Positions 8,602 through 60,073 of a stretch of DNA of 64,000 bases are shown piece after piece; positions within the stretch are counted from its first letter, which is position 1, and the number at the start of each line of letters is the position of its first letter. The notes beneath the pieces are model-generated. The model was given only the letters and a program-made list of their open reading frames with translations. It ran no database searches and was not told the DNA's origin. The position numbers and the translations under genes were made by a program. The stretch lies in assembly GCF_046119375.1 (NCBI RefSeq), contig NW_027362765.1:95976001-96040000 (forward strand). The letters run 5' to 3'. This DNA comes from Phyllobates terribilis. Its lineage: Eukaryota.

Positions 8602-9617
8602 CTACCTGTCCACTTAGGAAGCAACACTGATTGTGAATCAATTTCTCCTGCTGTTGTGCAAATGGAACAGACAACTAGTAGAAATGATAGACAATTAGCA
8701 AGATACCCTCTATAAAGGAGCGGTACTGCAGGTGGTGACCACAGACCATTTCTCTGTTCTCATCCTTTTTGGCTGTTGTTACAGTCCCTTTTTCATTTTG
8801 CCATTGCTCTTGTTATGCACACGCCCGGGCTAAGCGGCGTGTGCGTGTGATTGGTAGTGATTCCACTGGACCGTGCCGGAGAGTGAATGCCTGGAGGGGC
8901 GTGACTAAGTATTCACCCGATCCGACCAGGGTCGCACGACGGCATACGACGCCAGTGCACCAAGGAGGAACCGAGCAGAGGGACCAGGTGCTACTCCAGG
9001 ACAGACCCCGGACACGGCTGTTGACCCACACAGGGGAATACAGGAACAGGCTGGTAGGCTGGCACACAGACTGGTGGGTATAGGCAGGCACGACTGGTAT
9101 GCAGGCAGGCGGGTATGCAGGCAGGGGGGTAAAGGCAAGCACAGCTAGAGTGCAGACAGGGAGGCACTAGCAGGTAGGAACACAGGCGGGATAGGACCCA
9201 GTACACACCGGGACTCAGGAACATTACAGGCAGAGGGGTACAGGCAGGGCAGGACAGGACTGCCGGAGCAGCGGGCAGAAGCAGGGCAGGACAGGACTGC
9301 CGGAGCAGAACGGACAGGACTCTGTACACACGGAACAGACAGGAAGGGAAAGGCAGAGCCAGATACCCACAGGGTACTTGCAGTGAAGTAGCGAGGGGAC
9401 CACAAACTCACAAACGGGAGTACAGAGACAACAAGCAGGAGTTAGGTACGAGTTCAGACTCTGCAGAAAAAGGAAGGGAACGGACATAGAGGAAAAACAG
9501 GTAAAGGATAGGAGAGAGTTCAGACTGGAACTGAGTGTACGGAGGGGACCGACACTGCAGCGGGATACAGGAGTGGGTCTGGGAATACTGCCCCCAGAGA
9601 GGCGGGACGAACAGGCA

Positions 9618-9805
9618 AGGAGCGTGTTCAGACAGGACAGACAAAATACAGGAGCGGGTCTAGGTAATCGGCCCCTAGAAGGCGGGAGGAACAGGCTAGG
9701 AGCGTGTTCAGACAGGACAGACAAAATACAGGAGCGGGTCTAGGTAATCGGCCCCTAGAAGGCGGGAGGAACAGGCTAGGAGCGTGTTCAGACAGGACAG
9801 ACAAG
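9618..9805. repeat. 80-bp tandem repeat (about 2.3 copies) inside LTR; also at +3492 and +6984
   Basis: aggagcgtgttcagacaggacagaca recurs at 9618, 9698, 9778. Confidence 0.9.
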
Positions 9806-9816
9806 ATACACAGAAA

Positions 9817-10126
9817 GGACTCAGTTCAGACACGGGAACTAATACCGCAAAGCAGGAGACATACAGGACTCAGTTCAGACACGGGAACTAATACCGCAAA
9901 GCAGGAGACATACAGGACTCAGTTCAGACACGGGAACTAATACCGCAAAGCAGGAGACATACAGGACACAGTTCAGACACGGGAACTAATACCGCAAAGC
10001 AGGAGACATACAGGACACAGTTCAGACACGGGAGCTGATACCGCAAAGCAGGAGACATACAGGACACAGTTCAGACACGGGAGCTGATACCGCAAAGCAG
10101 GAGACATACAGGACTAAGTTCAGACA
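9817..10126. repeat. 49-bp tandem repeat (about 6.3 copies) inside LTR; also at +3492 and +6984
   Basis: ggactcagttcagacacgggaactaataccgcaaagcaggagacataca recurs every 49 bp. Confidence 0.92.
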
Positions 10127-10253
10127 GGCCTGGAAATACAGCCTCCAGGAAAGGCAGACAAGGAAACAAAGACGAGACCTGGCACCTTCAGAGTGCAAGC
10201 ACACACTGAAGGAAAACACTATGCTCAGGCAGGGATAGAAGGGAGCTGCTGAG

Positions 10254-12158
10254 CTATATACCAAGTGTCAGACAGCAATAGGCTGAGGACGCACAAGGGG
10301 CGTGACCCACAGCAGGTACAAAGAGCAGGAAGTGATCGGGCGCCGCCCTTAAGCAGCAGAGACAGACACAAACAGACAGCATGGAGGGAAGCCAGAGTGA
10401 CATTCTGGACAGGAGATCAAGTGCGCTCTCTTGCACAGTGGGAGATGGACCACCATGCAAGGACGCCGCCAGGTATGTTACAGTACCTCCCCCCTTACGC
10501 CCCCTCTTCTTCAGGCCTGCCAGAATCTTCCGCAGGGAATTCGAGGACCAGTCGTTCACTGGGTTGGAGGGGGACAGAGACTTGAGGGTAATCTCTGCTT
10601 CGAGGTACATCTTGTCAAGCTCACAGGAAAAAATAGACGGGTTATCAGGTACATAATGAGGAAAAGTCACTGTCTCTTTGTTATCTGGTGGTATCCCGGA
10701 GGATTCAGGAAACAACTGGAGGTCCTCCGCCGGGTCAGAAGAGTGCAGAGGCTCAGAGAAAACAACTGCTTCAGAGTACACTAGGTCGGACTCACTGGAG
10801 GAAGCAGGCGAGGTATCGGGTACCGAGTATAGGAAAGTCTCTGTCCATTCACCACCAGGTGGCACCCCGAAGGGTTCTGAACACAACTGGAGGTCCTCCG
10901 CCTGGTCGGAGGGGTGTAGAGACTCGGGAGTAACCTCTGCTTCGGAGTACACTAGGTCGGACTCACTGGACGAAGCGAGCGAGGTATCAGGTACAGGATA
11001 TAGGAAAGTCTCTGTCCATTCACCACCAGGTGGCACCCCGAAGGATTCTGAACACAACTGGAGGTCCTCCGCCTGGTCGGAGGGGTGTAGAGACTCAGGA
11101 GTAACCTCTGCTTCGGAGTACACTAGGTTGGACTCACTGGACGAAGCGAGCGAGGTATCAGGTACAGAGTATAGGAGAGTCTCTGTCCTTTCGCTACCAG
11201 GTAGCACCCCGAAGGGTTCAGGAGACAACTGGAGATCCTCCGCCTGGTCGGAGGGGTGTAGAGACTCGGAGGTAACTACCACTTTGGGGTACCCATTGTC
11301 AGGCTCACAGGACGAAGCGGACAAGGTATTGAGTACCGGGTGTAGAGAAGTCTCTCTCCATTTGTCATCGAGTGGTATCCCGGAGGATTCAGGAGGCAAC
11401 AGGGGATCCTCCGCCAGGTAGTAGAGGTGCACAGACTCAGAGGTAACCACAGCTTTGGAGCATCCTTGGACATGCACACCGGTTAAAGAGAGAGAAGCAT
11501 CTGATGCCGGGTGCAGGAAGTTCTCCTGTGTGGAGTCTGGATGGGCAGAAGTCTCTTCGGGCAGGAGAACTGGTGCACTACCCACGCACATTACCCATTG
11601 GGGTTTCTCCGGGATACAGGGAGATGAAGCTTCAGTAGGGACTTCAAGGTTGGGGTCAGGAGGTCTCAGGGAGGACAGACCCTGGCGTGACGGCTTGCCT
11701 CTACGTCTAGCACGTCTGGACTGCCTCTTGAGGTTGAGAGAAGTATTCCGGAAAGCGTAGTCACCCTGTGAGGATTCTGGGTGGGCAGTAGTCTCATTGG
11801 GCTGGAGGACTATTGCGCTACCCACACACATTACCCATTGGGGCTGCTCCGGGATATTGGGAGGTGAAGCTTCAGCAGGAGCCTCCGGGTTAGGATCATC
11901 GAAGACCATTAGAAAGGCCACCAGGAAGGCCATTAGGTCCCGGAGGATCGGATCCTGTGTTTCATATAGGGGGTTGATCCATTCCAAGGCATCACCCGCC
12001 AGGTAAGACATAATAAAGGCCACTTTAGCCCAATCGGAAGGAAAATAGAGAGGGTAGGCCTTAAAGTGTAGCATGCATTGCTCCACAAATGCACGACACT
12101 GTCTTGGATCCCCATAGTAACGTGGCGGATCCGCAGGAACGAGAGCTGATAGATCCAT
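10254..12158 (-). CDS. Gag-derived ORF: Sushi/Ty3 capsid N-terminal domain (LDOC1/RTL-like) plus acidic 57-aa repeats, copy 1
   Basis: aa 1-89 PPRYYGDPRQCRAFVEQC..F..YP..FPSDWAKVAFIMSYLAGDALEW..P resembles retrotransposon Gag/RTL domain; 171-nt internal repeats keep frame; 634-aa uninterrupted ORF. Confidence 0.8.
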   Translation of the reverse strand: MDLSALVPADPPRYYGDPRQCRAFVEQCMLHFKAYPLYFPSDWAKVAFIMSYLAGDALEWINPLYETQDPILRDLMAFLVAFLMVFDDPNPEAPAEASPPNIPEQPQWVMCVGSAIVLQPNETTAHPESSQGDYAFRNTSLNLKRQSRRARRRGKPSRQGLSSLRPPDPNLEVPTEASSPCIPEKPQWVMCVGSAPVLLPEETSAHPDSTQENFLHPASDASLSLTGVHVQGCSKAVVTSESVHLYYLAEDPLLPPESSGIPLDDKWRETSLHPVLNTLSASSCEPDNGYPKVVVTSESLHPSDQAEDLQLSPEPFGVLPGSERTETLLYSVPDTSLASSSESNLVYSEAEVTPESLHPSDQAEDLQLCSESFGVPPGGEWTETFLYPVPDTSLASSSESDLVYSEAEVTPESLHPSDQAEDLQLCSEPFGVPPGGEWTETFLYSVPDTSPASSSESDLVYSEAVVFSEPLHSSDPAEDLQLFPESSGIPPDNKETVTFPHYVPDNPSIFSCELDKMYLEAEITLKSLSPSNPVNDWSSNSLRKILAGLKKRGRKGGGTVTYLAASLHGGPSPTVQESALDLLSRMSLWLPSMLSVCVCLCCLRAAPDHFLLFVPAVGHAPCASSAYCCLTLGI

Positions 12159-12290
12159 CTGGACGGTGCGTAATTTCGCCTGGAACTCAGCTAAGAGAAA
12201 AAAAAAAAATTTATTTATTTATTTTAATGCATATATTCGCTGGAAAAACTTCTCAAAGAGCGAAGGCCGTGAGGCTCAACGGGAACCATG

Positions 12291-12300
12291 GCCTGAGCAT
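12291..12300 (-). other. Putative self-priming primer-binding site (also 15783-15792)
   Basis: ATGCTCAGGC on the minus strand, 2 nt inside the 5' LTR end; I do not recognise it as a tRNA 3'-end complement. Confidence 0.7.
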
Positions 12301-13712
12301 GCTGTTATGCACACGCCCGGGCTAAGCGGCGTGTGCGTGTGATTGGTAGTGATTCCACTGGACCGTGCCGGAGAGTGAATGCCTGGAGGGGCGTGACTAA
12401 GTATTCACCCGATCCGACCAGGGTCGCACGACGGCATACGACGCCAGTGCACCAAGGAGGAACCGAGCAGAGGGACCAGGTGCTACTCCAGGACAGACCC
12501 CGGACACGGCTGTTGACCCACACAGGGGAATACAGGAACAGGCTGGTAGGCTGGCACACAGACTGGTGGGTATAGGCAGGCACGACTGGTATGCAGGCAG
12601 GCGGGTATGCAGGCAGGGGGGTAAAGGCAAGCACAGCTAGAGTGCAGACAGGGAGGCACTAGCAGGTAGGAACACAGGCGGGATAGGACCCAGTACACAC
12701 CGGGACTCAGGAACATTACAGGCAGAGGGGTACAGGCAGGGCAGGACAGGACTGCCGGAGCAGCGGGCAGAAGCAGGGCAGGACAGGACTGCCGGAGCAG
12801 AACGGACAGGACTCTGTACACACGGAACAGACAGGAAGGGAAAGGCAGAGCCAGATACCCACAGGGTACTTGCAGTGAAGTAGCGAGGGGACCACAAACT
12901 CACAAACGGGAGTACAGAGACAACAAGCAGGAGTTAGGTACGAGTTCAGACTCTGCAGAAAAAGGAAGGGAACGGACATAGAGGAAAAACAGGTAAAGGA
13001 TAGGAGAGAGTTCAGACTGGAACTGAGTGTACGGAGGGGACCGACACTGCAGCGGGATACAGGAGTGGGTCTGGGAATACTGCCCCCAGAGAGGCGGGAC
13101 GAACAGGCAAGGAGCGTGTTCAGACAGGACAGACAAAATACAGGAGCGGGTCTAGGTAATCGGCCCCTAGAAGGCGGGAGGAACAGGCTAGGAGCGTGTT
13201 CAGACAGGACAGACAAAATACAGGAGCGGGTCTAGGTAATCGGCCCCTAGAAGGCGGGAGGAACAGGCTAGGAGCGTGTTCAGACAGGACAGACAAGATA
13301 CACAGAAAGGACTCAGTTCAGACACGGGAACTAATACCGCAAAGCAGGAGACATACAGGACTCAGTTCAGACACGGGAACTAATACCGCAAAGCAGGAGA
13401 CATACAGGACTCAGTTCAGACACGGGAACTAATACCGCAAAGCAGGAGACATACAGGACACAGTTCAGACACGGGAACTAATACCGCAAAGCAGGAGACA
13501 TACAGGACACAGTTCAGACACGGGAGCTGATACCGCAAAGCAGGAGACATACAGGACACAGTTCAGACACGGGAGCTGATACCGCAAAGCAGGAGACATA
13601 CAGGACTAAGTTCAGACAGGCCTGGAAATACAGCCTCCAGGAAAGGCAGACAAGGAAACAAAGACGAGACCTGGCACCTTCAGAGTGCAAGCACACACTG
13701 AAGGAAAACACT

Positions 13713-13752
13713 ATGCTCAGGCAGGGATAGAAGGGAGCTGCTGAGCTATATA
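13713..13752 (-). promoter_or_regulatory. LTR promoter: TATATA box (13747-13752) and predicted TSS at 13722 (same at 10221-10260 and 17205-17244)
   Basis: Minus-strand TATATA lies 30 nt upstream of GCCTGAGCAT, the exact complement of the PBS-position sequence. Confidence 0.65.
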
Positions 13753-15650
13753 CCAAGTGTCAGACAGCAATAGGCTGAGGACGCACAAGGGGCGTGACCC
13801 ACAGCAGGTACAAAGAGCAGGAAGTGATCGGGCGCCGCCCTTAAGCAGCAGAGACAGACACAAACAGACAGCATGGAGGGAAGCCAGAGTGACATTCTGG
13901 ACAGGAGATCAAGTGCGCTCTCTTGCACAGTGGGAGATGGACCACCATGCAAGGACGCCGCCAGGTATGTTACAGTACCTCCCCCCTTACGCCCCCTCTT
14001 CTTCAGGCCTGCCAGAATCTTCCGCAGGGAATTCGAGGACCAGTCGTTCACTGGGTTGGAGGGGGACAGAGACTTGAGGGTAATCTCTGCTTCGAGGTAC
14101 ATCTTGTCAAGCTCACAGGAAAAAATAGACGGGTTATCAGGTACATAATGAGGAAAAGTCACTGTCTCTTTGTTATCTGGTGGTATCCCGGAGGATTCAG
14201 GAAACAACTGGAGGTCCTCCGCCGGGTCAGAAGAGTGCAGAGGCTCAGAGAAAACAACTGCTTCAGAGTACACTAGGTCGGACTCACTGGAGGAAGCAGG
14301 CGAGGTATCGGGTACCGAGTATAGGAAAGTCTCTGTCCATTCACCACCAGGTGGCACCCCGAAGGGTTCTGAACACAACTGGAGGTCCTCCGCCTGGTCG
14401 GAGGGGTGTAGAGACTCGGGAGTAACCTCTGCTTCGGAGTACACTAGGTCGGACTCACTGGACGAAGCGAGCGAGGTATCAGGTACAGGATATAGGAAAG
14501 TCTCTGTCCATTCACCACCAGGTGGCACCCCGAAGGATTCTGAACACAACTGGAGGTCCTCCGCCTGGTCGGAGGGGTGTAGAGACTCAGGAGTAACCTC
14601 TGCTTCGGAGTACACTAGGTTGGACTCACTGGACGAAGCGAGCGAGGTATCAGGTACAGAGTATAGGAGAGTCTCTGTCCTTTCGCTACCAGGTAGCACC
14701 CCGAAGGGTTCAGGAGACAACTGGAGATCCTCCGCCTGGTCGGAGGGGTGTAGAGACTCGGAGGTAACTACCACTTTGGGGTACCCATTGTCAGGCTCAC
14801 AGGACGAAGCGGACAAGGTATTGAGTACCGGGTGTAGAGAAGTCTCTCTCCATTTGTCATCGAGTGGTATCCCGGAGGATTCAGGAGGCAACAGGGGATC
14901 CTCCGCCAGGTAGTAGAGGTGCACAGACTCAGAGGTAACCACAGCTTTGGAGCATCCTTGGACATGCACACCGGTTAAAGAGAGAGAAGCATCTGATGCC
15001 GGGTGCAGGAAGTTCTCCTGTGTGGAGTCTGGATGGGCAGAAGTCTCTTCGGGCAGGAGAACTGGTGCACTACCCACGCACATTACCCATTGGGGTTTCT
15101 CCGGGATACAGGGAGATGAAGCTTCAGTAGGGACTTCAAGGTTGGGGTCAGGAGGTCTCAGGGAGGACAGACCCTGGCGTGACGGCTTGCCTCTACGTCT
15201 AGCACGTCTGGACTGCCTCTTGAGGTTGAGAGAAGTATTCCGGAAAGCGTAGTCACCCTGTGAGGATTCTGGGTGGGCAGTAGTCTCATTGGGCTGGAGG
15301 ACTATTGCGCTACCCACACACATTACCCATTGGGGCTGCTCCGGGATATTGGGAGGTGAAGCTTCAGCAGGAGCCTCCGGGTTAGGATCATCGAAGACCA
15401 TTAGAAAGGCCACCAGGAAGGCCATTAGGTCCCGGAGGATCGGATCCTGTGTTTCATATAGGGGGTTGATCCATTCCAAGGCATCACCCGCCAGGTAAGA
15501 CATAATAAAGGCCACTTTAGCCCAATCGGAAGGAAAATAGAGAGGGTAGGCCTTAAAGTGTAGCATGCATTGCTCCACAAATGCACGACACTGTCTTGGA
15601 TCCCCATAGTAACGTGGCGGATCCGCAGGAACGAGAGCTGATAGATCCAT
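13746..15650 (-). CDS. Gag-derived ORF copy 2 (translation identical to copy 1)
   Basis: ORF track gives identical 634-aa protein at +3492. Confidence 0.8.
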   Translation of the reverse strand: MDLSALVPADPPRYYGDPRQCRAFVEQCMLHFKAYPLYFPSDWAKVAFIMSYLAGDALEWINPLYETQDPILRDLMAFLVAFLMVFDDPNPEAPAEASPPNIPEQPQWVMCVGSAIVLQPNETTAHPESSQGDYAFRNTSLNLKRQSRRARRRGKPSRQGLSSLRPPDPNLEVPTEASSPCIPEKPQWVMCVGSAPVLLPEETSAHPDSTQENFLHPASDASLSLTGVHVQGCSKAVVTSESVHLYYLAEDPLLPPESSGIPLDDKWRETSLHPVLNTLSASSCEPDNGYPKVVVTSESLHPSDQAEDLQLSPEPFGVLPGSERTETLLYSVPDTSLASSSESNLVYSEAEVTPESLHPSDQAEDLQLCSESFGVPPGGEWTETFLYPVPDTSLASSSESDLVYSEAEVTPESLHPSDQAEDLQLCSEPFGVPPGGEWTETFLYSVPDTSPASSSESDLVYSEAVVFSEPLHSSDPAEDLQLFPESSGIPPDNKETVTFPHYVPDNPSIFSCELDKMYLEAEITLKSLSPSNPVNDWSSNSLRKILAGLKKRGRKGGGTVTYLAASLHGGPSPTVQESALDLLSRMSLWLPSMLSVCVCLCCLRAAPDHFLLFVPAVGHAPCASSAYCCLTLGI

Positions 15651-18600
15651 CTGGACGGTGCGTAATTTCGCCTGGAACTCAGCTAAGAGAAAAAAAAAAA
15701 ATTTATTTATTTATTTTAATGCATATATTCGCTGGAAAAACTTCTCAAAGAGCGAAGGCCGTGAGGCTCAACGGGAACCATGGCCTGAGCATGCTGTTAT
15801 GCACACGCCCGGGCTAAGCGGCGTGTGCGTGTGATTGGTAGTGATTCCACTGGACCGTGCCGGAGAGTGAATGCCTGGAGGGGCGTGACTAAGTATTCAC
15901 CCGATCCGACCAGGGTCGCACGACGGCATACGACGCCAGTGCACCAAGGAGGAACCGAGCAGAGGGACCAGGTGCTACTCCAGGACAGACCCCGGACACG
16001 GCTGTTGACCCACACAGGGGAATACAGGAACAGGCTGGTAGGCTGGCACACAGACTGGTGGGTATAGGCAGGCACGACTGGTATGCAGGCAGGCGGGTAT
16101 GCAGGCAGGGGGGTAAAGGCAAGCACAGCTAGAGTGCAGACAGGGAGGCACTAGCAGGTAGGAACACAGGCGGGATAGGACCCAGTACACACCGGGACTC
16201 AGGAACATTACAGGCAGAGGGGTACAGGCAGGGCAGGACAGGACTGCCGGAGCAGCGGGCAGAAGCAGGGCAGGACAGGACTGCCGGAGCAGAACGGACA
16301 GGACTCTGTACACACGGAACAGACAGGAAGGGAAAGGCAGAGCCAGATACCCACAGGGTACTTGCAGTGAAGTAGCGAGGGGACCACAAACTCACAAACG
16401 GGAGTACAGAGACAACAAGCAGGAGTTAGGTACGAGTTCAGACTCTGCAGAAAAAGGAAGGGAACGGACATAGAGGAAAAACAGGTAAAGGATAGGAGAG
16501 AGTTCAGACTGGAACTGAGTGTACGGAGGGGACCGACACTGCAGCGGGATACAGGAGTGGGTCTGGGAATACTGCCCCCAGAGAGGCGGGACGAACAGGC
16601 AAGGAGCGTGTTCAGACAGGACAGACAAAATACAGGAGCGGGTCTAGGTAATCGGCCCCTAGAAGGCGGGAGGAACAGGCTAGGAGCGTGTTCAGACAGG
16701 ACAGACAAAATACAGGAGCGGGTCTAGGTAATCGGCCCCTAGAAGGCGGGAGGAACAGGCTAGGAGCGTGTTCAGACAGGACAGACAAGATACACAGAAA
16801 GGACTCAGTTCAGACACGGGAACTAATACCGCAAAGCAGGAGACATACAGGACTCAGTTCAGACACGGGAACTAATACCGCAAAGCAGGAGACATACAGG
16901 ACTCAGTTCAGACACGGGAACTAATACCGCAAAGCAGGAGACATACAGGACACAGTTCAGACACGGGAACTAATACCGCAAAGCAGGAGACATACAGGAC
17001 ACAGTTCAGACACGGGAGCTGATACCGCAAAGCAGGAGACATACAGGACACAGTTCAGACACGGGAGCTGATACCGCAAAGCAGGAGACATACAGGACTA
17101 AGTTCAGACAGGCCTGGAAATACAGCCTCCAGGAAAGGCAGACAAGGAAACAAAGACGAGACCTGGCACCTTCAGAGTGCAAGCACACACTGAAGGAAAA
17201 CACTATGCTCAGGCAGGGATAGAAGGGAGCTGCTGAGCTATATACCAAGTGTCAGACAGCAATAGGCTGAGGACGCACAAGGGGCGTGACCCACAGCAGG
17301 TACAAAGAGCAGGAAGTGATCGGGCGCCGCCCTTAAGCAGCAGAGACAGACACAAACAGACAGCATGGAGGGAAGCCAGAGTGACATTCTGGACAGGAGA
17401 TCAAGTGCGCTCTCTTGCACAGTGGGAGATGGACCACCATGCAAGGACGCCGCCAGGTATGTTACAGCTCTCACCCCTAGAAGTACAGTAGCATGAGGCG
17501 GTGTCTACAGTACAACCCACAGAAGTTGCTCAAGTAGTGCAGTTCATCCAGGATGGCACATCAATACGAGCTGTGGCAAGAAGGGTAGCTGTGTCTGTCA
17601 GCACAGTGTCCAGAGCATGGACCACATACCAGGAGATGTGGAGGGAGACATAGGAGGGCTACAACCCAGCAGCAGGACCATTACCTCCTCCTTTGTGCAA
17701 GGAGGAACAGGAGGAGCACTGCCAGAGCCCTGCAAAATGACCTCCAGCAGGCCACAAATGTGCATGTGTCTGCACAAACGGTTAGAAACCGACTCCATGA
17801 GGGTGGTATGAGGGCCCGACGTCCACAGATGGGGGTTCTGCTCACAGCCTAACACTGTGCAGGACACTTGGCATTTGCCACAGAACACCAGGATTGGCAA
17901 AGTCGCTACTGGCGCCCTGTGTTCTTCACAGATGAAAGCTGGTTCACACTGAGCACATGTGACAGACATGACAGAGTCTGGAGACGCTGTGGAGAACGAT
18001 CTGCTGCCTGCAACATCCTTCAGCATGACCGTTTTATCAATGGGTCAGTAATGGTATGGGGTGGCATTTGTTTGGAGGGTGGCACAGCCCTCCATGTGCT
18101 CGCCAGAGGTAGCCTGACTGCCATTAGGTACCGAGATGAGATCCTCAGACCCCTTGTGAGACCATATGCTGGTGCGGTTGGCCCTGGGTTCCTCCTAATG
18201 CAGGACAATGCCAGACCTCATGTGGCTGGAGTGTGTCAGCAGTTCCTGCAAGATGAAGGAATTGAAGCTATGGACTGGCCCGCCCGTTCCCCAGACCTGA
18301 ATCCGATTGAGCACATCTGGGATATCATGTCTCGCTCCATCCACCAACATCACGTTGCACCACAGACTGTCCAGGAGTTGGCGGATGCTTTAGTCCAGGT
18401 CTGGGAGGAGATCCCACAGGAGACCATCCGCAACCTCATCAGGAGCATGCCCAGGCATTGTAGGGAGGTCATACAGGCACGTGGATTCCACACACAATAC
18501 CGAGCCTCATTTTGACTTGTTTTAAGGACATTACATCAAAGTTGGATCAGCCTGTAGTGTGTTTTTCCACTTTAATTTTGGGGGTGACTCCAAATCCAGG

Positions 18601-25189: not shown

Positions 25190-28032
25190 CACACCTTCTC
25201 ATTTAAAGATTTTTCTGTATTTTCATGACTATGAAAATTGTACATTCACACTGAAGGCATCAAAACTATGAATTAACACATGTGGAATTATATACTTAAC
25301 AAAAAAGTGTGAAACAACTGAAAATATGTCTTATATTCTAGGTTCTTCAAAGTAGCCACCTTTTGCTTTGATGACTGCTTTGCACACTCTTGGCATTCTC
25401 TTGATGAGCTTCAAGAGGTAGTCACAGGAAATGTTCTACTGTAGCACCCTGAGGATTCGGCTGCTACAGGGGTATTGCACCTCAAACCAGAGGTGTGATA
25501 TTCCACTCCCGGGTAAGGATGGAGCGTGGAACTGAGCTAGTAGGCTGCATGCACTACATACATCCCATTTCCGGGGGACAGATCGACGGTACTCCCACCA
25601 GTTTATGTGCAGGTACAATAGTGTCTGTCCCTGGCTGGAGTAAGAGGGGGGTGGAACATCCCAGTAGTGTAGGGGCAGATAGGGGGGAGCAGTTTGGGTA
25701 AAGCTAGGAGCTCATTGGGTGCTGGTCACCTGAGCTCACACATAGAGGGAGTATATAAGGTGGGCACCATCTTAGATCAGAGTCAGTCTGTCAGAGTTGA
25801 GTCAGAGGAGCAGAGCAGAGAAGCTCAGCCAGAAGGGCTGACAGGGGAGTTGTGGTTCCGGCTGGGCCCAGCTCCAAGGCCAAGAGAGAGAGGAGTCAGA
25901 AGGACCCAGAGAGAAGGAGAAGGAACCCCAAGACCCCAGAATACAAGCAACAGGGTGAAGGGTTGGCACCTAGGGTACCGGATCCCAAGCTGGCAGAGAG
26001 AAAAGCACACCTTAGCCAGAGACCGGAGGTCGTGGGCAGGATCTGCCACGACCCTCACCAAATCCACCAGGAAGGCAGACCAAGTATAGGGTCAGGGAAC
26101 CCAGAAGAGGTGTACCCACCAAGAGACCCGAGGGAGCCGGACATAGGTGGATCCCTGGTGAGAACGGCCAGAAGAGAGGGAAAGTCAGACAGGAGCTCAG
26201 GACCACACTCCAGAATTACTTGGGGGTTGGCCGAGTCCAGGACCTGGTGGACGCAGCACGGCTCGGGTGGTCGCTTCAGGCCAGAGTGACCATAAGAACA
26301 CCCGTAAGTAAAAACCCCTGAACTGCACAGCCCGACTCTGAGTCTTCTTGCTGATTCATCCTGCACCTGCACAACCACCATCCTCTACACCTGACCCCCT
26401 GAGGCTATACCCCTCCCGTTGGGGGTTATACTACCAGAGCTGCACACACACCACCAGCCTCAGCGGACCCTTCTGCAGCGGCGGCCTTGTGACCGCAAAT
26501 CAACGGGTGGCGTAGTCGACATTAAGGACCCTTAACAACATCTGTAAAGACTGCCACACACTGAGTTTGACACCCTGGGCACGGACCGGGTCACCGCCAC
26601 TCGGAGACTACAACCCCCATCTGATCCGGCTCCGGGTAATCCCCAAACAGCACTGGCCCAGGGGGCGCGTCACTACCAACAATCTTGAAGGAGTTCCCAG
26701 AGATGCTTAGCACTTGTTGGCCCTTTTGCCTTCACTCTGCGGTCCAGCTCACCCCAAACCATCTCGATTGGGTTCAGGTCTGGTGACTGTGGAGGCCAGG
26801 TCATCTGGCGTAGCACCCCATCACTCTCCTTCTTGGTCAAATAGCCCTTACACAGCCTGGAGATGTGTTTGGGGTCATTGTCCTGTTGAAAAATAAATGA
26901 TGGTGCAACTAAACGCAAACCGGATGGAATAGCATGCCGCTGCAAGATGCTGTGGTAGCCATGCTGGTTCAGTATGCCTTCAATTTTGAATAAATCCCCA
27001 ACAGTGTCACCAGCAAAGCACCCCCACACCATCACACCTCCTCCTCCATGCTTCACGGTGGGAACCAGGCATGTAGAGTCCATCCGTTCACCTTTTCTGC
27101 GTCGCACAAAGACACGGTGGTTGGAGCCAAAGATCTCAAATTTGGACACATCAGACCAAAGCACAGATTTCCACTGGTCTAATGTCCATTCCTTGTGTTC
27201 TTTAGCCCAAACAAGTCTCTTCTGCTTGTTGCCTGTCCTTAGCAGTGGTTTCCTAGCAGCTATTTTACCATGAAGGCCTGCTGCACAAAGTCTCCTCTTA
27301 ATAGTTGTTGAAGAGATGTGTCTGCTGCTAGAACTCTGTGTGGCATTGACCTGGTCTCTAATCTGAGCTGCTGTTAACCTGTGATTTCTGAGGCTGGTGA
27401 CGCGGATAAACTTATCCTCAGAAGCAGAGGTGACTCTTGGTCTTCCTTTCCTGGGGCGGTCCTCATGTGAGCCAGTTTCTTTGTAGCGCTTGATGGTTTT
27501 TGCAACTGCACTTGAGGACACTTTCAAAGTTTGCCCAATTTTTCGGACTGACTCACCTTCATTTCTTAAAGTAATGATGGCCACTTGTTTTTCTTTACTT
27601 AGAATTTGTATTATGGCAAGAAAAAAGCAGCTAACAGTCTATTCAGTAGGACTATCAGCTATGTATCCACCAGACTTCTGCACAACACAACTGATGGTCC
27701 AACCCCATTTATAAGGCAAGAAATCCCACTTATTAAACCTGACAGGGCACACCTGTGAAGTGAAAACCATTTCCGGTTACTACCTCTTGAAGCTCATCAA
27801 GAGAATGCCAAGAGTGTGCAAAGCAGTCATCAAAGCAAAAGGTGTCTACTTTGAAGAACCTAGAATATAAGACATATTTTCAGTTGTTTCACACTTTTTT
27901 GTTAAGTATATAATTCCACATGTGTTAATTCATAGTTTTGATGCCTCCAGTGTGAATGTACAATTTTCAAAGTCATGAAAATACAGAAAAATCTTTAAAT
28001 GAGAAGGTGTGTCCAAATTTTTGGTCTGTACT
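25190..28032 (-). mobile_element. Tc1 element with about 200-bp TIRs; transposase 26673-27584 interrupted near C-terminus by a solo LTR
   Basis: TIRs cacaccttctcatttaaag... / ...gagaaggtgtgtccaaatttttggtctgtactg|TA; [19 protein letters not shown]; C-terminal KRMPRVCKAVIKAKGGYFEE resumes below 25436. Confidence 0.9.
25440..26672. mobile_element. Solo LTR (1233 bp) inserted in Tc1 transposase
   Basis: TGTAGCACCCTGAGG...GGGGGCGCGTCA; 4-bp TSD CTAC. Confidence 0.85.
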
Positions 28033-28178: not shown

Positions 28179-29818
<1,640 letters not shown>

Positions 29819-32328: not shown

Positions 32329-32943
32329 TAAATTAAGGTAAGCTTCCAGGAGTTCACAACTGAGCAGATTAACCCCTGCACTGCTAAAAGAACCTACACC
32401 ATTTAATATGAAGGCGAAAGGCTTCTAATGAGTGCAGGAGTGGAAGGAATCAGACACTGCAGTCTTCTGGCTCCTCTGTCGCAGTAAACTCGTGACATTA
32501 TTAGAGACAACTTCTTAGATGAGGCACACCATGTGCCCGACCTTCTCCGTACCCCCAGCCATAAAATATATGGACTGGCTCATTACTTATGTCCTAATAC
32601 GGCATAAGGACAAAGCTTGTCTTTAGGATACAACCCTCTTTAAAACTGGTCATAGACCTCATAAATTTGATCTTCAAACGCTATTTTACAGGGTAGATGT
32701 AGGTAAAATCAGTCCTGTAGATATCCTGAGTTATATCATGTATTATACTCCAGAGCTGCACTCACTATTCTGTTCACGATAATTAGACGAGCTTGCTGAC
32801 AACTCTGGTAAAATATAAGCTGCGCTGTCATTGGACATTACAAAATGCTTCAAGAGTATGATATAAAATGCAAGTCTGGATTACAACATGGGTGTGCTTT
32901 ATAGACAACAATCCCCAAATAATTTGACTTAACCGATACTTAC

Positions 32944-33548
32944 AAATTTGAGGTCCAGTCCTGGTAGGACTGCGCACCACAACACTCCATGCCAAGCTGT
33001 ATTTCATCCAATATAAACTTGAGGTCTGAATCATCTTGGTATCTGTTCACGGCTACCATCATGGTCTTCTTCATCGAATCCTCAATCTGTTTGTGAAAAC
33101 ACAGTACCACCAGGGACACCAAACATTGTGCAATCAAAAGCGTAGTAATCCCAGCAAAAAAAAGCTTGAGGAGACAAATGTTCTCTCTGATGAAGCCAAC
33201 GCATCCAGAGAAAGACAAGACACAGACGACCAAGCCCACCAGTACAAACACAAGCATGGGGTCGGTTCCCAGATTATTGATCTGCTCACCCATCAAGGAC
33301 TGCTTGTCCGCAAGGCCCCAAAATCCTATGCACAGCAGTCCAAAGCCCAGCGTAAAGAAGATGAAGTTGAGAAAGAACATGAAATATTTGATGAAGGGTA
33401 GAAATGGATCGGGATGATGGCCTCGAGGTGGTGGCCAGTCTTTCGGCACAATGGAGAATGGGGAGTTGTCCACTTCAGCATTACTATGGGTGTAGTATTG
33501 GAAGTCATTCGATTCCTGGCCGTATTTTCTATTCCATTTTTGAGCATC
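32944..33548 (-). CDS. TSPAN10: Tetraspanin-10 large middle coding exon (TM1-3, CCG motif)
   Basis: Acceptor ctcaatttcag|GAT GCT; KYFMFFLNFIF..GCVGFIREN..ECCGAQSYQDW; donor TT|GTAAGT, phase 2 matches next exon; position between PDE6G and NPLOC4. Confidence 0.92.
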
Positions 33549-34733
33549 CTGAAATTGAGGTTTTAAAATGAGAGAAGGCTCTGATCCCTCCAGGTACACA
33601 GTCATTGTCACTGCCTGTGACCCCACATTGCTCACCAGCCATAGCCGCCGCTCGCCCAAGCCAAGATGTCGCAAACCATAGCCATGGCCTGCCCAACCGT
33701 TGACATCACCAGCCACAACGATTGCCTGCCCACCCTTTGGCATTACCAGACATAGTCATTGCTTCCCCAAATGACCGCATAGATAGTCAGTCACAGTCAT
33801 CTCTCCCCAGAATGTGGTAAGACATAGTCTATGCTCTCTACATCATAAATAGCCATAGTCATTGTCACAGTCAATACCCCTCCTCCTCTCAAAAAATTTA
33901 ATCTATGTCAGTGCTCCCCAAAACGTTGGCAGTCATCGTCTGTGGTCCTCGCTGCCAGGTACAGTCATCGCTTCTACAACAATGCAACCATAAGTCACTG
34001 GTGGAGGTGCTGCATAATCCTGGATGGTGAAGAGTCCACTGCAAGAAACTGCTTCAAAATCCAGAGTGTGAACACAAACTTATGTAAAATAAAAACCAAA
34101 ACCCCCAACTACTTAGTTATAAACTTAGCCTTGGGAGCCTACTGTATAGTGCAGCTGGCATCCATACTCTATGGAGCAGGCTCAGCTGCAGAGCACGCTC
34201 CATACACACAGAAGGGATATCTACTGAATATGTATGGCGGACGTCGCAAATTGAAACATGGGCAGAAGTAAGTCGCCTAGAAGTCATGAGCCCGGGAACT
34301 TGTTTCCTGGCTCTAACCCTACTACAGAGTCATATCTAGGATTTTCAAGGCAACAATTAAGAATTTGGGCGTTTTTAGAAATGTAGGTTGTGCATACTCC
34401 CGGACAACCAGAAAAAAACAAAACAAAACAAAACAAGGCACTTTTTCTTTTGTGCAAAATTCATGAATCTCCCCGACCCATTTTGAATAATTTGGTGCAA
34501 AAAAAATAAACATTTTATACCACAAGCCAAAAACTAAATTAGTGAAATAAACGTGACTTCAATAAATTGTATATGATGAATCGGACCCCATGTGTATTAG
34601 AAAGTTGCAGAATTTACGATGAGTCTTAATATGTAGAAGTGACTTTTTGTGGAGTAAAACCAGAGCACAAATAACCCCCTTCCCCACCCAAGCATTAAAA
34701 TTCTGAAACACACAGATTATAAGGATTTATCAC

Positions 34734-56700: not shown

Positions 56701-57225
56701 GGGTATCAAAGGCCGTCTCCGCATGGGCCAAACAGCTTTGGCAGGGCATCCTAACGGGGGCTTCCCCGGACGATCTGGCTGACCTAGCGGATCAGATCGC
56801 CCATGCAGGAAAATATCTGCTCACGGCGTCCTTTGACGCCGCTGCCTGTTCAGCCCGCGTCTCTAGCAATATCATTGCTATACATAGAATTCTCCCTTTT
56901 CAAGGCTCCAGGCTGTTTGGGTCTATGTTGGACTAGATCATTTCTGATGCCACTGGGGGCAAGAGCACCTCCCTTCCCCAGCCGAGACCTAAACGGCCCT
57001 TTCCTATGAGAATTTCCCTTCAGTTCCGGTCCTTTTGTCAGTTCGCTCAACCGGACCCCTCCTCTCAACAGGACCGTTCCCCAGCACAGCGAGAGAGAAG
57101 TAAGCCTACCTTTAGGCCCACTCCCAACTGGCGCACAAAGGGTCACTCTTCTAAGCCCTCGGGATCACGATCCAACAGATTTTCCTCAGCATGATGGGTC
57201 ACTCCCACCTGGGACTTCTCCCAGG

Positions 57226-58191
57226 GTGGGCGGCCGTCTACTTCTGTTCCGAGACTCTTGGGTCTCGGCAATAGAAGACGCCTGGGTCAAGGAGATTGTG
57301 ACCTCCAGCTACAAGATCGAATTCAACGCCATGCCAGGAACACGATTTCTCAGGTCCCGCCCCCCGCATCCATCTCTGCTTCCCGGTTTCCTTCAGGCCA
57401 TCGCCTCCCTTCTGCGCTCAGGAGTCATAGTTCCAGTCCCCCTTCAGGAAAGGTTTTCCGGTTTTTACTCCAGTCTTTTCGTTGTTCCAAAAAACGACGG
57501 CTCACTACGTCCGATCCTGGACCTCAAACAACTAAACCGACAGGTACGCATCCGGCACTTCAGAATGGAGTCCCTCAGGTCGGTAATCGCCTCAATGGAA
57601 GCCGAGGAATATCTATGTTCAGTGGACATTCAGGATGCGTATCTTCACATCCCAATCTGTGCACCACATCAGAAGTTCCTTCATTTTGCCTTCCAGAATG
57701 CACATTATCAGTTCACCTCTCTCCCCTTCGGGCTTGCCTCCGCCCCAAGGGTTTTCACGAAAGTAATGGTCATGGCCAATCTACGAGCCAGGGGGATTGT
57801 AATTATCCCCTACCTTGACGACCTATTGATCAAGGGTCCCATGTTCAGGGACTGTCTCCACAGTCTCCAGATCACCTTGAACACGCTCTCTCGGTTAGGC
57901 TGGCTGATCAACACAGACAAATCCTCCCTGGTCCCATCTCAACACGTAACCTTTCTAGGGATGCAGTTCGACACGACCCATGCCCGGGTCCTTCTCCCGA
58001 GGGAAAAGATAAACTCTCTCCGTCTAGGGATCCACCTTCTTTCTGACCCAAGTCCACACTCTCTTCGCCTATGCATGAGTGTCTTGGGAAAAATGGTGGC
58101 AGCTATGGAAGCAGTGCCTTTGCCCAGTTCTATACCCAGCCTCTTCAACTGGCCCTTCTGTCGGCATGGGACAAGTACCTGTCGTCTCTAG
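57226..58191 (+). pseudogene. DIRS reverse transcriptase (frameshifted)
   Basis: GFYSSLFVVPK, RPILDLK, VDIQDAYLHIPI, LPFGLASAPRVF, IPYLDDLLI. Confidence 0.9.
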
Positions 58192-59044
58192 ATCGACGCT
58201 TCAGGTTACCTCTTCATGTGAGAAGGTCATTAACATGGTGGACTCTCCCTCTTCCTTCAGACCTGGGAGGTCATTCCTACCACTTTGCTGGCAGGTGGTC
58301 ACGACCGATGCCAGCCTCATCGGTTGGGGGGCAGTCTTCCTTCACCACACGGTGCAGGGCCGGTGGAGTCCCCACGAAGTCTCCCTACCGATCAATATCT
58401 TGGAGATAAGGGCAATTTACCTGAGTCCCCTGGCAGGATATTCTTGCAGGGTTCCCGGTCCGCGTACAATTGGACAACGCCACGGCTGTGGCATACATAA
58501 ACAGTCAGGGAGGAACGCGCAGCAAGTCCGTCTTGAAAGAGGTGGCAAGAGTGCTAGTTTGGGCCGAGAACACAGTTCCGGCAATCTCAGCAGTCCACAT
58601 TCCGGGGTCGACAATTGGGCGGCCGACTTCCTCAGTCGACAGGGCCTTGCCTCAGGAGAATGGCCTCTCCATCCCGAGGTGTTCCATCAGATTTGCTTAC
58701 GATGGGGCACGCCGGACGTCGACCTCATGGCGTCTCGGTTAAACCACAAGGTTTCATCCTTTGTAGCCCGGTCCCGCGATCCCCTTGCGATCGCTCAAGA
58801 CGCGCTAGTCATATCGTGGTCTCAGTTCCAGCTGCCATATCTTTTTCCTCTTCTACCATTGATCCCTCGAGTCGTCAAAAAGATCAAGACAGAAGGAGTA
58901 CCGGTTATTCTAGTAGCCCCTGATTGGCCCAGACGCGTCTGGTACGCAGATCTAGTAAACCTGCTCGTCGACTGCCCCTGGAGACTACCAGACTGTCCGG
59001 ACCTCCTCTCTCAGGGGCCTATTCTTCGAGTCCTCGTTCTCTGA
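58079..59044 (+). pseudogene. DIRS RNase H and methyltransferase-like region (frameshifted)
   Basis: VTTDASLIGWGAV, INILEIRAI, DNWAADFLSR, PDVDLMASRLN, ILVAPDWPRRVWY. Confidence 0.85.
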
Positions 59045-59054
59045 ATTCAATGGC

Positions 59055-60073
59055 ATGGCTGTTGAGGCCGCAGTGTTGAAGAAGACGGGTTTTGCGGACG
59101 TCATCCAGACCTTAATTCGTGCCAGAAAACCCGCAACTTCGCGCATATACCACAGAACCTGGAGAGCCTTTTTTCTTCACTGCGAGAAAGATATGCTAGC
59201 TCCCTTGTCCTTTTCGTTACCGGTCATTTTGGCCTTTCTTCAGTCTGGTCTGGAAGCGGGACTCTCTCTAAGCACTCTCAAAGGCCTAGTTTCGGCCTTG
59301 TCCATTCTATTCCAACGTAACTTGGCTTTCCGTCCTCAGGTCAAGACGTTTCTACAAGGGGTGGCTCACCTGGCGCCGCCTTATCGTCCCCCGGTGGATC
59401 CATGGGACCTTAATATGGTCCTAAGCACCCTCCAACAGCCCCCGTTTGAACCCATTCAGGACATCTCAGCCTCTCTTCTCTCCTGGAAGGTGGCTTTTCT
59501 GGTGGCCGTTACCTCTATTAGGAGGGTTGCAGAGCTCGCAGCCCTCTCATATCGGTCACCCTTTCTGGTCTTCCATCAAGACAAGGTAGTGCTCAGGCCG
59601 GTGCCTTCCTTTTTGCCGAAAGTAGTCTCCTCTTTCCACATCAATGAGGACATTGTTTTGCCCCAGTGCACCCAGAAATCCCTGCACAAACTGGATCTGG
59701 TCAGAGCTTTACGTGTGTACCTTTCTAGAACGGCTTCCCTCCGGCGTTTGGACGCCCTGTTTGTCATCCCTGATGGGCGTCGCAGGGGCCTTCCAAGTCG
59801 ACCATCGCCCGTTGGATACGTTCGACCATTTTGGAGGTATATCGCATTTCGGACAAACCTCCCCCTCCGGGGTTAAGGGCTTACTCCACCCGGGCGGTGG
59901 GGGCCTCTTGGGCTGTTCGCCATCAGGCTTCAGCTTCTCAGATCTGTAAGGCCGCAACCTGGTCTTCACTCCACACCTTTTCAAGGTTTTACAAAGTCCA
60001 CACTTATTCCTCGGCTGATGTCAGTCTTGGACGGAAGGTTCTGCAGGCGGCGGTTGCCAGCAGTCAGACCTAA
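59055..60073 (+). pseudogene. DIRS tyrosine recombinase (frameshifted)
   Basis: KVAFLVAVTSIRRVAEL, FLPKVVS, STRAVGASWA, ICKAATWSSLHTFSRFY. Confidence 0.88.

Follow-up and report, generated by a model that had tools for sequence, protein, structure and literature searches.

The question raised by this locus is how a long terminal repeat (LTR) element that encodes no reverse transcriptase (RT), and whose primer-binding site (PBS) matches no recognisable tRNA end, starts its minus-strand DNA. In Tf1 this is done by self-priming, which has been demonstrated for that element and implicated from fungi to vertebrates (PMC4600332). The Tf1 primer is 11 nt long and is released by an RNase H cut (PMC7175516), a pretzel structure has been described for Tf1-type RNA (bioRxiv 10.1101/2022.12.06.519325), and self-primers are reported in Tf1/sushi elements of yeast and vertebrates (PMC6317226, citing Butler 2001). 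Further papers were also consulted (PMC5341516, PMC3601003, PMC4340606, PMC3035444, PMC2864245). The analysis of the window (the whole stretch of 64,000 nt) and of copies elsewhere in the genome leads us to conclude that this family very probably primes reverse transcription with the 5' end of its own RNA, as Tf1 does, rather than with a tRNA.

The element lies at 17466-8811 on the minus strand, with the arrangement LTR-internal-LTR-internal-LTR, identical units of 3492 bp and a 5-bp target-site duplication (TSD), AGAGC (Table 1). Because the units are repeated within this three-LTR element, the motif pair described below is present twice.

Table 1. Coordinates of the element's features within the window
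Feature	Position	Strand	Remarks
LTR 1	15795..17466	-	1672 nt, TGTAAC...CATAACA
LTR 2	12303..13974	-	Identical; serves unit 1 as 3' LTR and unit 2 as 5' LTR
LTR 3	8811..10482	-	Identical to the other two LTRs
TSD AGAGC, upstream copy	17467..17471	-	
TSD AGAGC, downstream copy	8806..8810	-	
TATA box	13747..13752	-	First T at -30 from the 10-mer
Predicted RNA 5' end / self-primer GCCTGAGCAT	13713..13722	-	Also 17214-17205 and 10230-10221; transcription start inferred
R-U5 loop	12303..13712	-	About 1.41 kb; 49-bp, 80-bp and 16-bp tandem repeats
U5 hairpin GCACACGCC / GGCGTGTGC	12309..12336	-	9 bp, directly before LTR end
U5 GGAATCA	12350..12356	-	May pair with the 7-mer that follows the PBS, as third duplex of a pretzel
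GC spacer, LTR to PBS	12301..12302	-	Replaces first two 3' TSD bases in other copies
Primer-binding site ATGCTCAGGC	12291..12300	-	Second copy 15792-15783
TGGTTCCCGT	12279..12288	-	Candidate pretzel arm; 10-bp complement of the 3' end of one tRNA-Glu gene
gag-like ORF, 634 codons from ATG	10254..12158	-	Second copy 15650-13746; ends inside next LTR
Polypurine tract before LTR 3	10486..10498	-	Second copy 13990-13978

At the curated cut-off the gag-like ORF has a single Pfam match, to DUF4939, a capsid N-terminal-like domain, which is followed by acidic Pro/Ser-rich repeats of 57 aa; the Pfam scan found no protease, RT, RNase H or integrase domain in it. The 171-bp (57-codon) repeats at 10687-11460 and 14179-14952 preserve the gag frame, and in 150 copies that share the same N-terminus the open frame measures 123-766 aa. 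Upstream of gag there are 12 ATGs. Between the PBS and the gag ATG, at 12235-12195 (minus strand), lie AATAAA repeats and a T-tract ending in TAG, a stretch that could act as a splice acceptor or direct early polyadenylation. Acceptor-like sequence precedes gag in all 40 main-family copies sampled and in 6 of 20 sister copies; no matching splice donor consensus was found, and the LTR contains none of the 12 poly(A) hexamers looked for.

Elsewhere in the window, an RT domain (Pfam RVT_1) with overlapping ORFs is found at 57010-59876 (plus strand), in what looks like a DIRS-type element. A Tc1-like transposase frame at 990-1988 was confirmed by Pfam, and the frames at 17853-18515, 26673-27638 and 28507-29599 are Tc1-like by appearance. 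A further frame, at 32940-33755, presumably resembles tetraspanin.

A check of the window sequence places the PBS ATGCTCAGGC, TATATA and the LTR motif GCCTGAGCAT exactly where the preliminary description had put them, on the minus strand. The LTR motif is the perfect 10-nt complement of the PBS, and the first T of TATATA, the sole TATA(A/T)A hexamer of the LTR, is at -30 relative to it; the PBS is offset from the LTR end by 2 nt, the intervening spacer being GC. The Tf1-type geometry that had been proposed, with the PBS immediately past the LTR and its perfect complement 30 nt after a TATA box, is thus borne out. The chance expectation for a perfect 10-mer match is 0.001 per LTR, and a perfect LTR complement is present for 5 of the 1811 internal 10-mers, the PBS included. 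From the TATA spacing, the RNA is predicted to start at G13722, the first base of GCCTGAGCAT; the PBS adjoining the 5' LTR can thus pair with the predicted start of the transcript, as expected of a Tf1/sushi element. When the 1462-nt RNA so predicted, which spans 13722 to 40 nt beyond the PBS start, is folded in silico, all ten PBS-motif pairs form, with probabilities of 0.96-1.0. The loop that they close had been described as about 1.4 kb filled with tandem repeats, and so it is.

The same description had found no recognisable tRNA complement in the PBS, and we agree. The PBS begins with ATG and is therefore unable to pair with the CCA end of a tRNA; a tRNA-primed element would have a PBS starting with TGG within a few nucleotides of the LTR, and the nearest TGG here is 14 nt away. 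As regards the flanking helices of a pretzel, the 9-bp U5 hairpin is found in 39 and the 7-bp arm in all of the 40 main-family copies, one arm of each being part of the search pattern. Compared with shuffled sequences they give z values of -0.2 to -2.6, which are not significant, and the full-length fold lacks the 7-bp arm.

The family is large. At least 5,359 exact LTR-PBS junctions occur in the 10.6-Gb genome, and 40 copies were sampled (38 in listing order on contig C1, with one tandem partner skipped, plus two listed PBS variants). All 40 have two LTRs. An element without its own RT had been postulated, and indeed no Pol domain was found in the 634-codon ORF, in any of these 40 copies or in 20 copies of a sister subfamily. 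The internal parts are 1.5-2.4 kb long and the LTRs 1.3-2.2 kb, so that the loops come to approximately 1.0-1.9 kb. The 5-bp TSDs match in 38/38 evaluable copies; divergence within LTR pairs of the listing-order sample averages 0.17% for the young promoter type and 0.34% for older types; and the ORF is open into the 3' LTR in 101 of 114 copies from all samples. Despite three promoter types that differ between TATA and motif, the 10-mer is perfect in 36 of the 40 5' LTRs, and a TATA-like box is found at -30 in 39 copies and at -29 in one. In other words, the subfamilies have swapped the sequence from TATA to motif and kept both the 10-mer and the spacing.

With two LTRs, a TSD, a polypurine tract, a gag ORF and no pol, the element has the make-up of the TR-GAG elements. 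It is a young gag-only non-autonomous chromovirus of the Tf1/sushi group. Being without Pol, it offers neither an RT for placement nor a chromodomain integrase; the Tf1/sushi assignment rests on similarity of its Gag to that of Pol-bearing relatives, of which it would be a derivative.

Tandem arrays with common LTRs recur, with up to four PBS sites in a row (G000:C1:86492383-86504731; L133, L188, L195, L218, L237, L241), and in some loci (L081, L096, L099, L103, L196) a short piece of the LTR end is duplicated, either alone or together with the PBS. It is unlikely that the tandem unit in the window is an assembly artefact, because such units recur in the family, with four arrays among the first 100 listed junctions.

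Relatives were sought through the DUF4939 domain. From 150 scored matches, 20 relatives were chosen and fetched at 10 kb, and 30 short loci were also checked. A perfect 10-bp match between PBS and LTR motif is present in 16/20 relatives and absent from four; these 16 have four different PBS sequences (ATACTCAGGC, ATACACAAGC, ATACTCTAGC and ATACTCAAGC), with loops of 192-700 nt. Ten of the 30 short loci have a 10-bp match and 20 have none, many of the relatives and short loci without a perfect match being degenerate or truncated. A TATA-like hexamer lies at -29 to -31 in one representative of each of five groups. The DUF4939 Gag is 38-47% identical to that of six related elements in the same genome; among the relatives, L062 has RT, RNase H, integrase and chromodomain, and L070 has RT, RNase H and integrase. 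Full-length relatives have LTRs of 0.4-0.9 kb, compared with 1.3-2.2 kb in the gag-only family.

The sister gag-only subfamily has 412 sites with the PBS TTGCTCAGGC. Its LTR motif GCCTGAGCAA was found in 18 of 20 copies (in every LTR seen in 16, in one of two LTRs in 2) and is absent in two. Here, as in four related families of which two have a confirmed Pol, PBS and motif still pair with changed letters; because the motif pairs thus differ between families and subfamilies, PBS positions 1, 3, 5, 7 and 8 vary together with their partners. Covariation of the two 10-mers had been suggested as a check, and between families it is present, as expected of a Tf1/sushi element. Within the family it holds only in part, as described in the following paragraphs.

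Variation of the PBS within the family is concentrated at one position. Among about 5,500 sites overall (5431 of common type, a count that includes position-5 A), position 5 is A in 65, G in 1 and C in none; position 3 has 8 variants and position 7 has one. On the LTR side, +6, the partner of PBS position 5, is variant in 401 LTRs against 9243 common ones, and the variant is T in 98 of the first 100 listed; at +4, 20 LTRs deviate from the common base, 15 of them with G. The A at PBS position 5 (hereafter PBS-A) thus complements +6 T, the most frequent of the LTR-motif variants tested. No PBS change matching LTR +4 G exists genome-wide, where a rough estimate would expect about one. Of nine PBS variants at positions 3 and 7, all four that have an LTR motif inside the locus are uncompensated.

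From the 66 position-5 variants, 40 were fetched (those on C1-C13 minus one tandem partner; the 25 on smaller contigs were left out). The 39 PBS-A copies among them have +6 T in 21, G in one and the common base in 17, two of which are duplicates. The 21 copies with +6 T compare with 1.6 (4%) expected. In the reverse direction, C1-C3 hold 41 +6 T elements, of which 5 have PBS-A and 36 retain the common PBS, so that nine of ten pairs, or a primer from another RNA, must suffice. It is these 36/41 elements, together with the 17/39 PBS-A copies lacking the LTR variant, that make the covariation within the family partial. The combinations of LTR +6 and PBS position 5 on C1-C3, (T,A):(T,T):(A,A), occur as 5:36:4, against 1:3:1 from a simple model (one generation, half intermolecular transfer, 50:50 resolution), a comparison that is illustrative only.

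PBS-A does not mark a lineage. When a tree is built from the 700 nt that follow the PBS (113 rows, with the duplicate L171 excluded), the 38 PBS-A copies need 31 changes, compared with a shuffled mean of 31.6; at least 23 of the changes are forced by well-supported branches, and six sets of identical rows contain both PBS states. A U5 tree needs 26 changes, against 28.2 when shuffled. This scatter would fit repeated rewriting of the PBS from the self-primer, and the match of the PBS variant spectrum to the RNA start likely records self-primed copying. The LTR variant +6 T is also scattered, on U3 and U5 trees, and recombination or an error hot spot is therefore common here.

The PBS-A copies without +6 T hint at priming or strand transfer between RNAs. 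Six of these 17 have a U5 type that is seen in 0/38 unselected common-type copies and in 18/55 selected +6 T copies; two of the PBS-A copies with a common LTR, L157 and L185, have an older-type promoter and U5 end. Priming by the primer of the L061 family was also considered. It predicts A at PBS position 3, which is found in only 2 of the 8 variants there, and it was rejected. The bases flanking the motif vary as well, with T, G or C at -1 (13723) and insertions and substitutions at +11/+12 (13712-13711); as a sign of strong-stop cDNA ends this is suggestive only, neighbouring U3 sites being equally variable.

A separate footprint is found at target sites. In 6 of 33 +6 T copies (L191, L194, L197, L200, L201, L211), the 3' TSD starts with GC, the LTR-PBS spacer, in place of its own first two bases. 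Across the genome, GC and then a non-A base follow 624 LTR ends; 40 of these were fetched (L230-L269), and comprise 16 GC-replaced sites, 19 true TSDs, one other and four without a 5' end, making 16/36 classifiable sites GC-replaced. We estimate that about 5% of insertions are of this kind. A specific link to +6 T copies (6/33 vs 0/76) was dropped, the wider sample showing that the replacement occurs family-wide. Among PBS-A copies it is seen in 0/38, which is not significant; the self-priming model predicts none. The simplest reading is that a 2-nt 5' overhang was ligated, which would imply that the primer 3' end lies on A12300.

We propose the following mechanism. RNA polymerase II would start at G13722, as suggested by the spacing kept in all families examined, and the first 10 nt would pair with the PBS over the 1.4-kb loop; the complementarity and covariation are observed, and the pairing in vivo is predicted. 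The RT/RNase H of an autonomous chromovirus would cut after nucleotide 10, as in Tf1, and the cut fragment would be extended, copying the GC spacer first, a 2-nt start that the GC-replaced target sites support. In retroviruses, the primer is the template for the plus-strand PBS and the genomic PBS for its minus-strand counterpart, so that a variant primer gives rise to a recurring PBS variant (PMC4549124). By analogy with this work on HIV and tRNA-Lys5, a variant primer here would produce a heteroduplex, from which daughters could inherit either version. Such a model would account for the recurrence of PBS-A and for its enrichment with the matching LTR variant, and the PBS-A copies with a common LTR would have received primer or strong-stop DNA from another RNA. 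Going further, and with only modest confidence, we lean towards reading the germ-line copies as a natural record of self-priming in an animal: the PBS would be repeatedly overwritten, the primer would act between co-packaged RNAs, a loop of 1-2 kb and one central mismatch would be tolerated, and about 5% of insertions would keep the 2-nt overhang.

Other readings of the 10-mer pair have to be weighed against this. If tRNA-Glu primes at TGGTTCCCGT, 14 nt after the LTR, then the pairing of the 10-mers is merely structural. One tRNA-Glu gene (L303:1500-1573) does pair over 10 contiguous bp at this site, and 15 of 20 sister copies contain TGGTTCC. However, the other two tRNA-Glu genes at L303 (G000:C971:162687-165708, a tandem cluster of tRNA-Glu and tRNA-Thr genes) pair over only 5 contiguous bp, and a T-loop followed by the matching tRNA-Glu 3' end has just two matches genome-wide, compared with seven for a control pattern. 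The overhang retained in target sites is 2 nt rather than 14, and the related families examined have no TGG at the corresponding place. With tRNA priming the 10-mer would moreover be plain DNA, with no route to a recurrent rewriting of position 5 tied to the LTR variant, and we regard this reading as scarcely credible, the least probable of those considered. It is also very unlikely that the complementarity is an inherited relic, the copies having arisen by DNA-level duplication or another priming route and the covariation reflecting lineage only. The identity of the three LTRs in the window would suit such a relic, as would the outcome of the helper searches, which identified no helper with the same PBS and ends; the reading is nevertheless largely refuted by the TSDs, one for each evaluable copy, and by the trees, on which PBS-A is unclustered by lineage, and the low divergence of the LTR pairs likewise speaks against it.

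A reading that we think rather unlikely, and take more seriously than these, leaves room for self-priming and dispenses with priming between RNAs. Both PBS-A and +6 T would arise when RT misreads a single base of the RNA, namely an A at +6 that is modified or slippery. Both variants do amount to A inserted opposite A+6, both are scattered on the trees, and the 17 PBS-A copies with a common LTR would be explained. Independent errors nevertheless fail to explain why 21 of the 39 PBS-A copies also have +6 T, and the U5 type shared by six of the 17 with selected +6 T copies, and with none of the unselected common-type ones, also argues against misreading.

The mechanism preferred here, self-priming with enzymes supplied by another element, calls for a helper. 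A search for the same PBS followed by different downstream sequence gave 29 matches, all of them family copies or unrelated sequence without a Gag-like frame, using a filter that lets through only about a third of arbitrary sequences. The same polypurine tract and LTR start with different upstream sequence gave no match, and a different LTR end gave 332 sites. A set of 139 related sites (e.g. G000:C1:43838634) has the LTR end TGT(A/G/T)ACA and the PBS TTGCTCAGGCC, and is a candidate helper or ancestor.

The variant spectrum goes beyond mere complementarity, and provides copy-level evidence consistent with a primer copied into the PBS. The footprint would mark where minus-strand DNA starts and names the exact base for the transcription start, and the same counting would suit any LTR family of high copy number for which a self-primer is suspected. 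A family without Pol would thereby have reached a copy number in the thousands, in a giant genome, with no need of a tRNA.

Self-priming itself is a known mechanism and, in the sources consulted, has already been predicted for vertebrate Tf1/sushi elements. The literature searched yielded no description of the copy-level footprint, the loop of 1.0-1.9 kb or the gag-only form, and no title or opening of an abstract in it pointed to PBS rewriting by a self-primer, Tf1-type priming in trans, a gag-only amphibian element or spacer retention at a TSD; the primary Tf1/sushi papers may cover some of these. Tf1 and Tf2 of Schizosaccharomyces pombe, Tj1 and Tosmo1-3 are described as sharing a PBS beside the 5' LTR that is complementary to the RNA 5' end, the lack of a tRNA site and the chromovirus lineage. 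The frog family differs in having 10 bp where they have 11, a loop of 1.0-1.9 kb, no Pol, an animal host and thousands of copies. The vertebrate Tf1/sushi elements (V-clade: sushi-ichi and Amn-san, the latter abundant in frogs, PMC4131045) resemble it in their DUF4939 Gag and 5-bp TSD, with self-priming described for the group, and one Gag-similar relative in this genome has the order RT-RH-IN-chromo. Unlike them, the frog family is non-autonomous, with a truncated Gag followed by 57-aa repeats and with longer LTRs.

The plant TR-GAG elements keep a gag ORF, lack enzymes and form tandem arrays (PMC13570524), all of which is seen here. The frog family, in contrast, is of animal chromovirus origin, is predicted to be self-primed and retains only the N-terminal part of the capsid in recognisable form. 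Finally, the Lys5 variant of the HIV/SIV PBS is a single-base change that recurs and that the primer writes into the site by way of a plus/minus heteroduplex (PMC4549124). In the frog family the part of the primer would instead be played by the 5' end of the element's RNA, and germ-line copies preserve the record.
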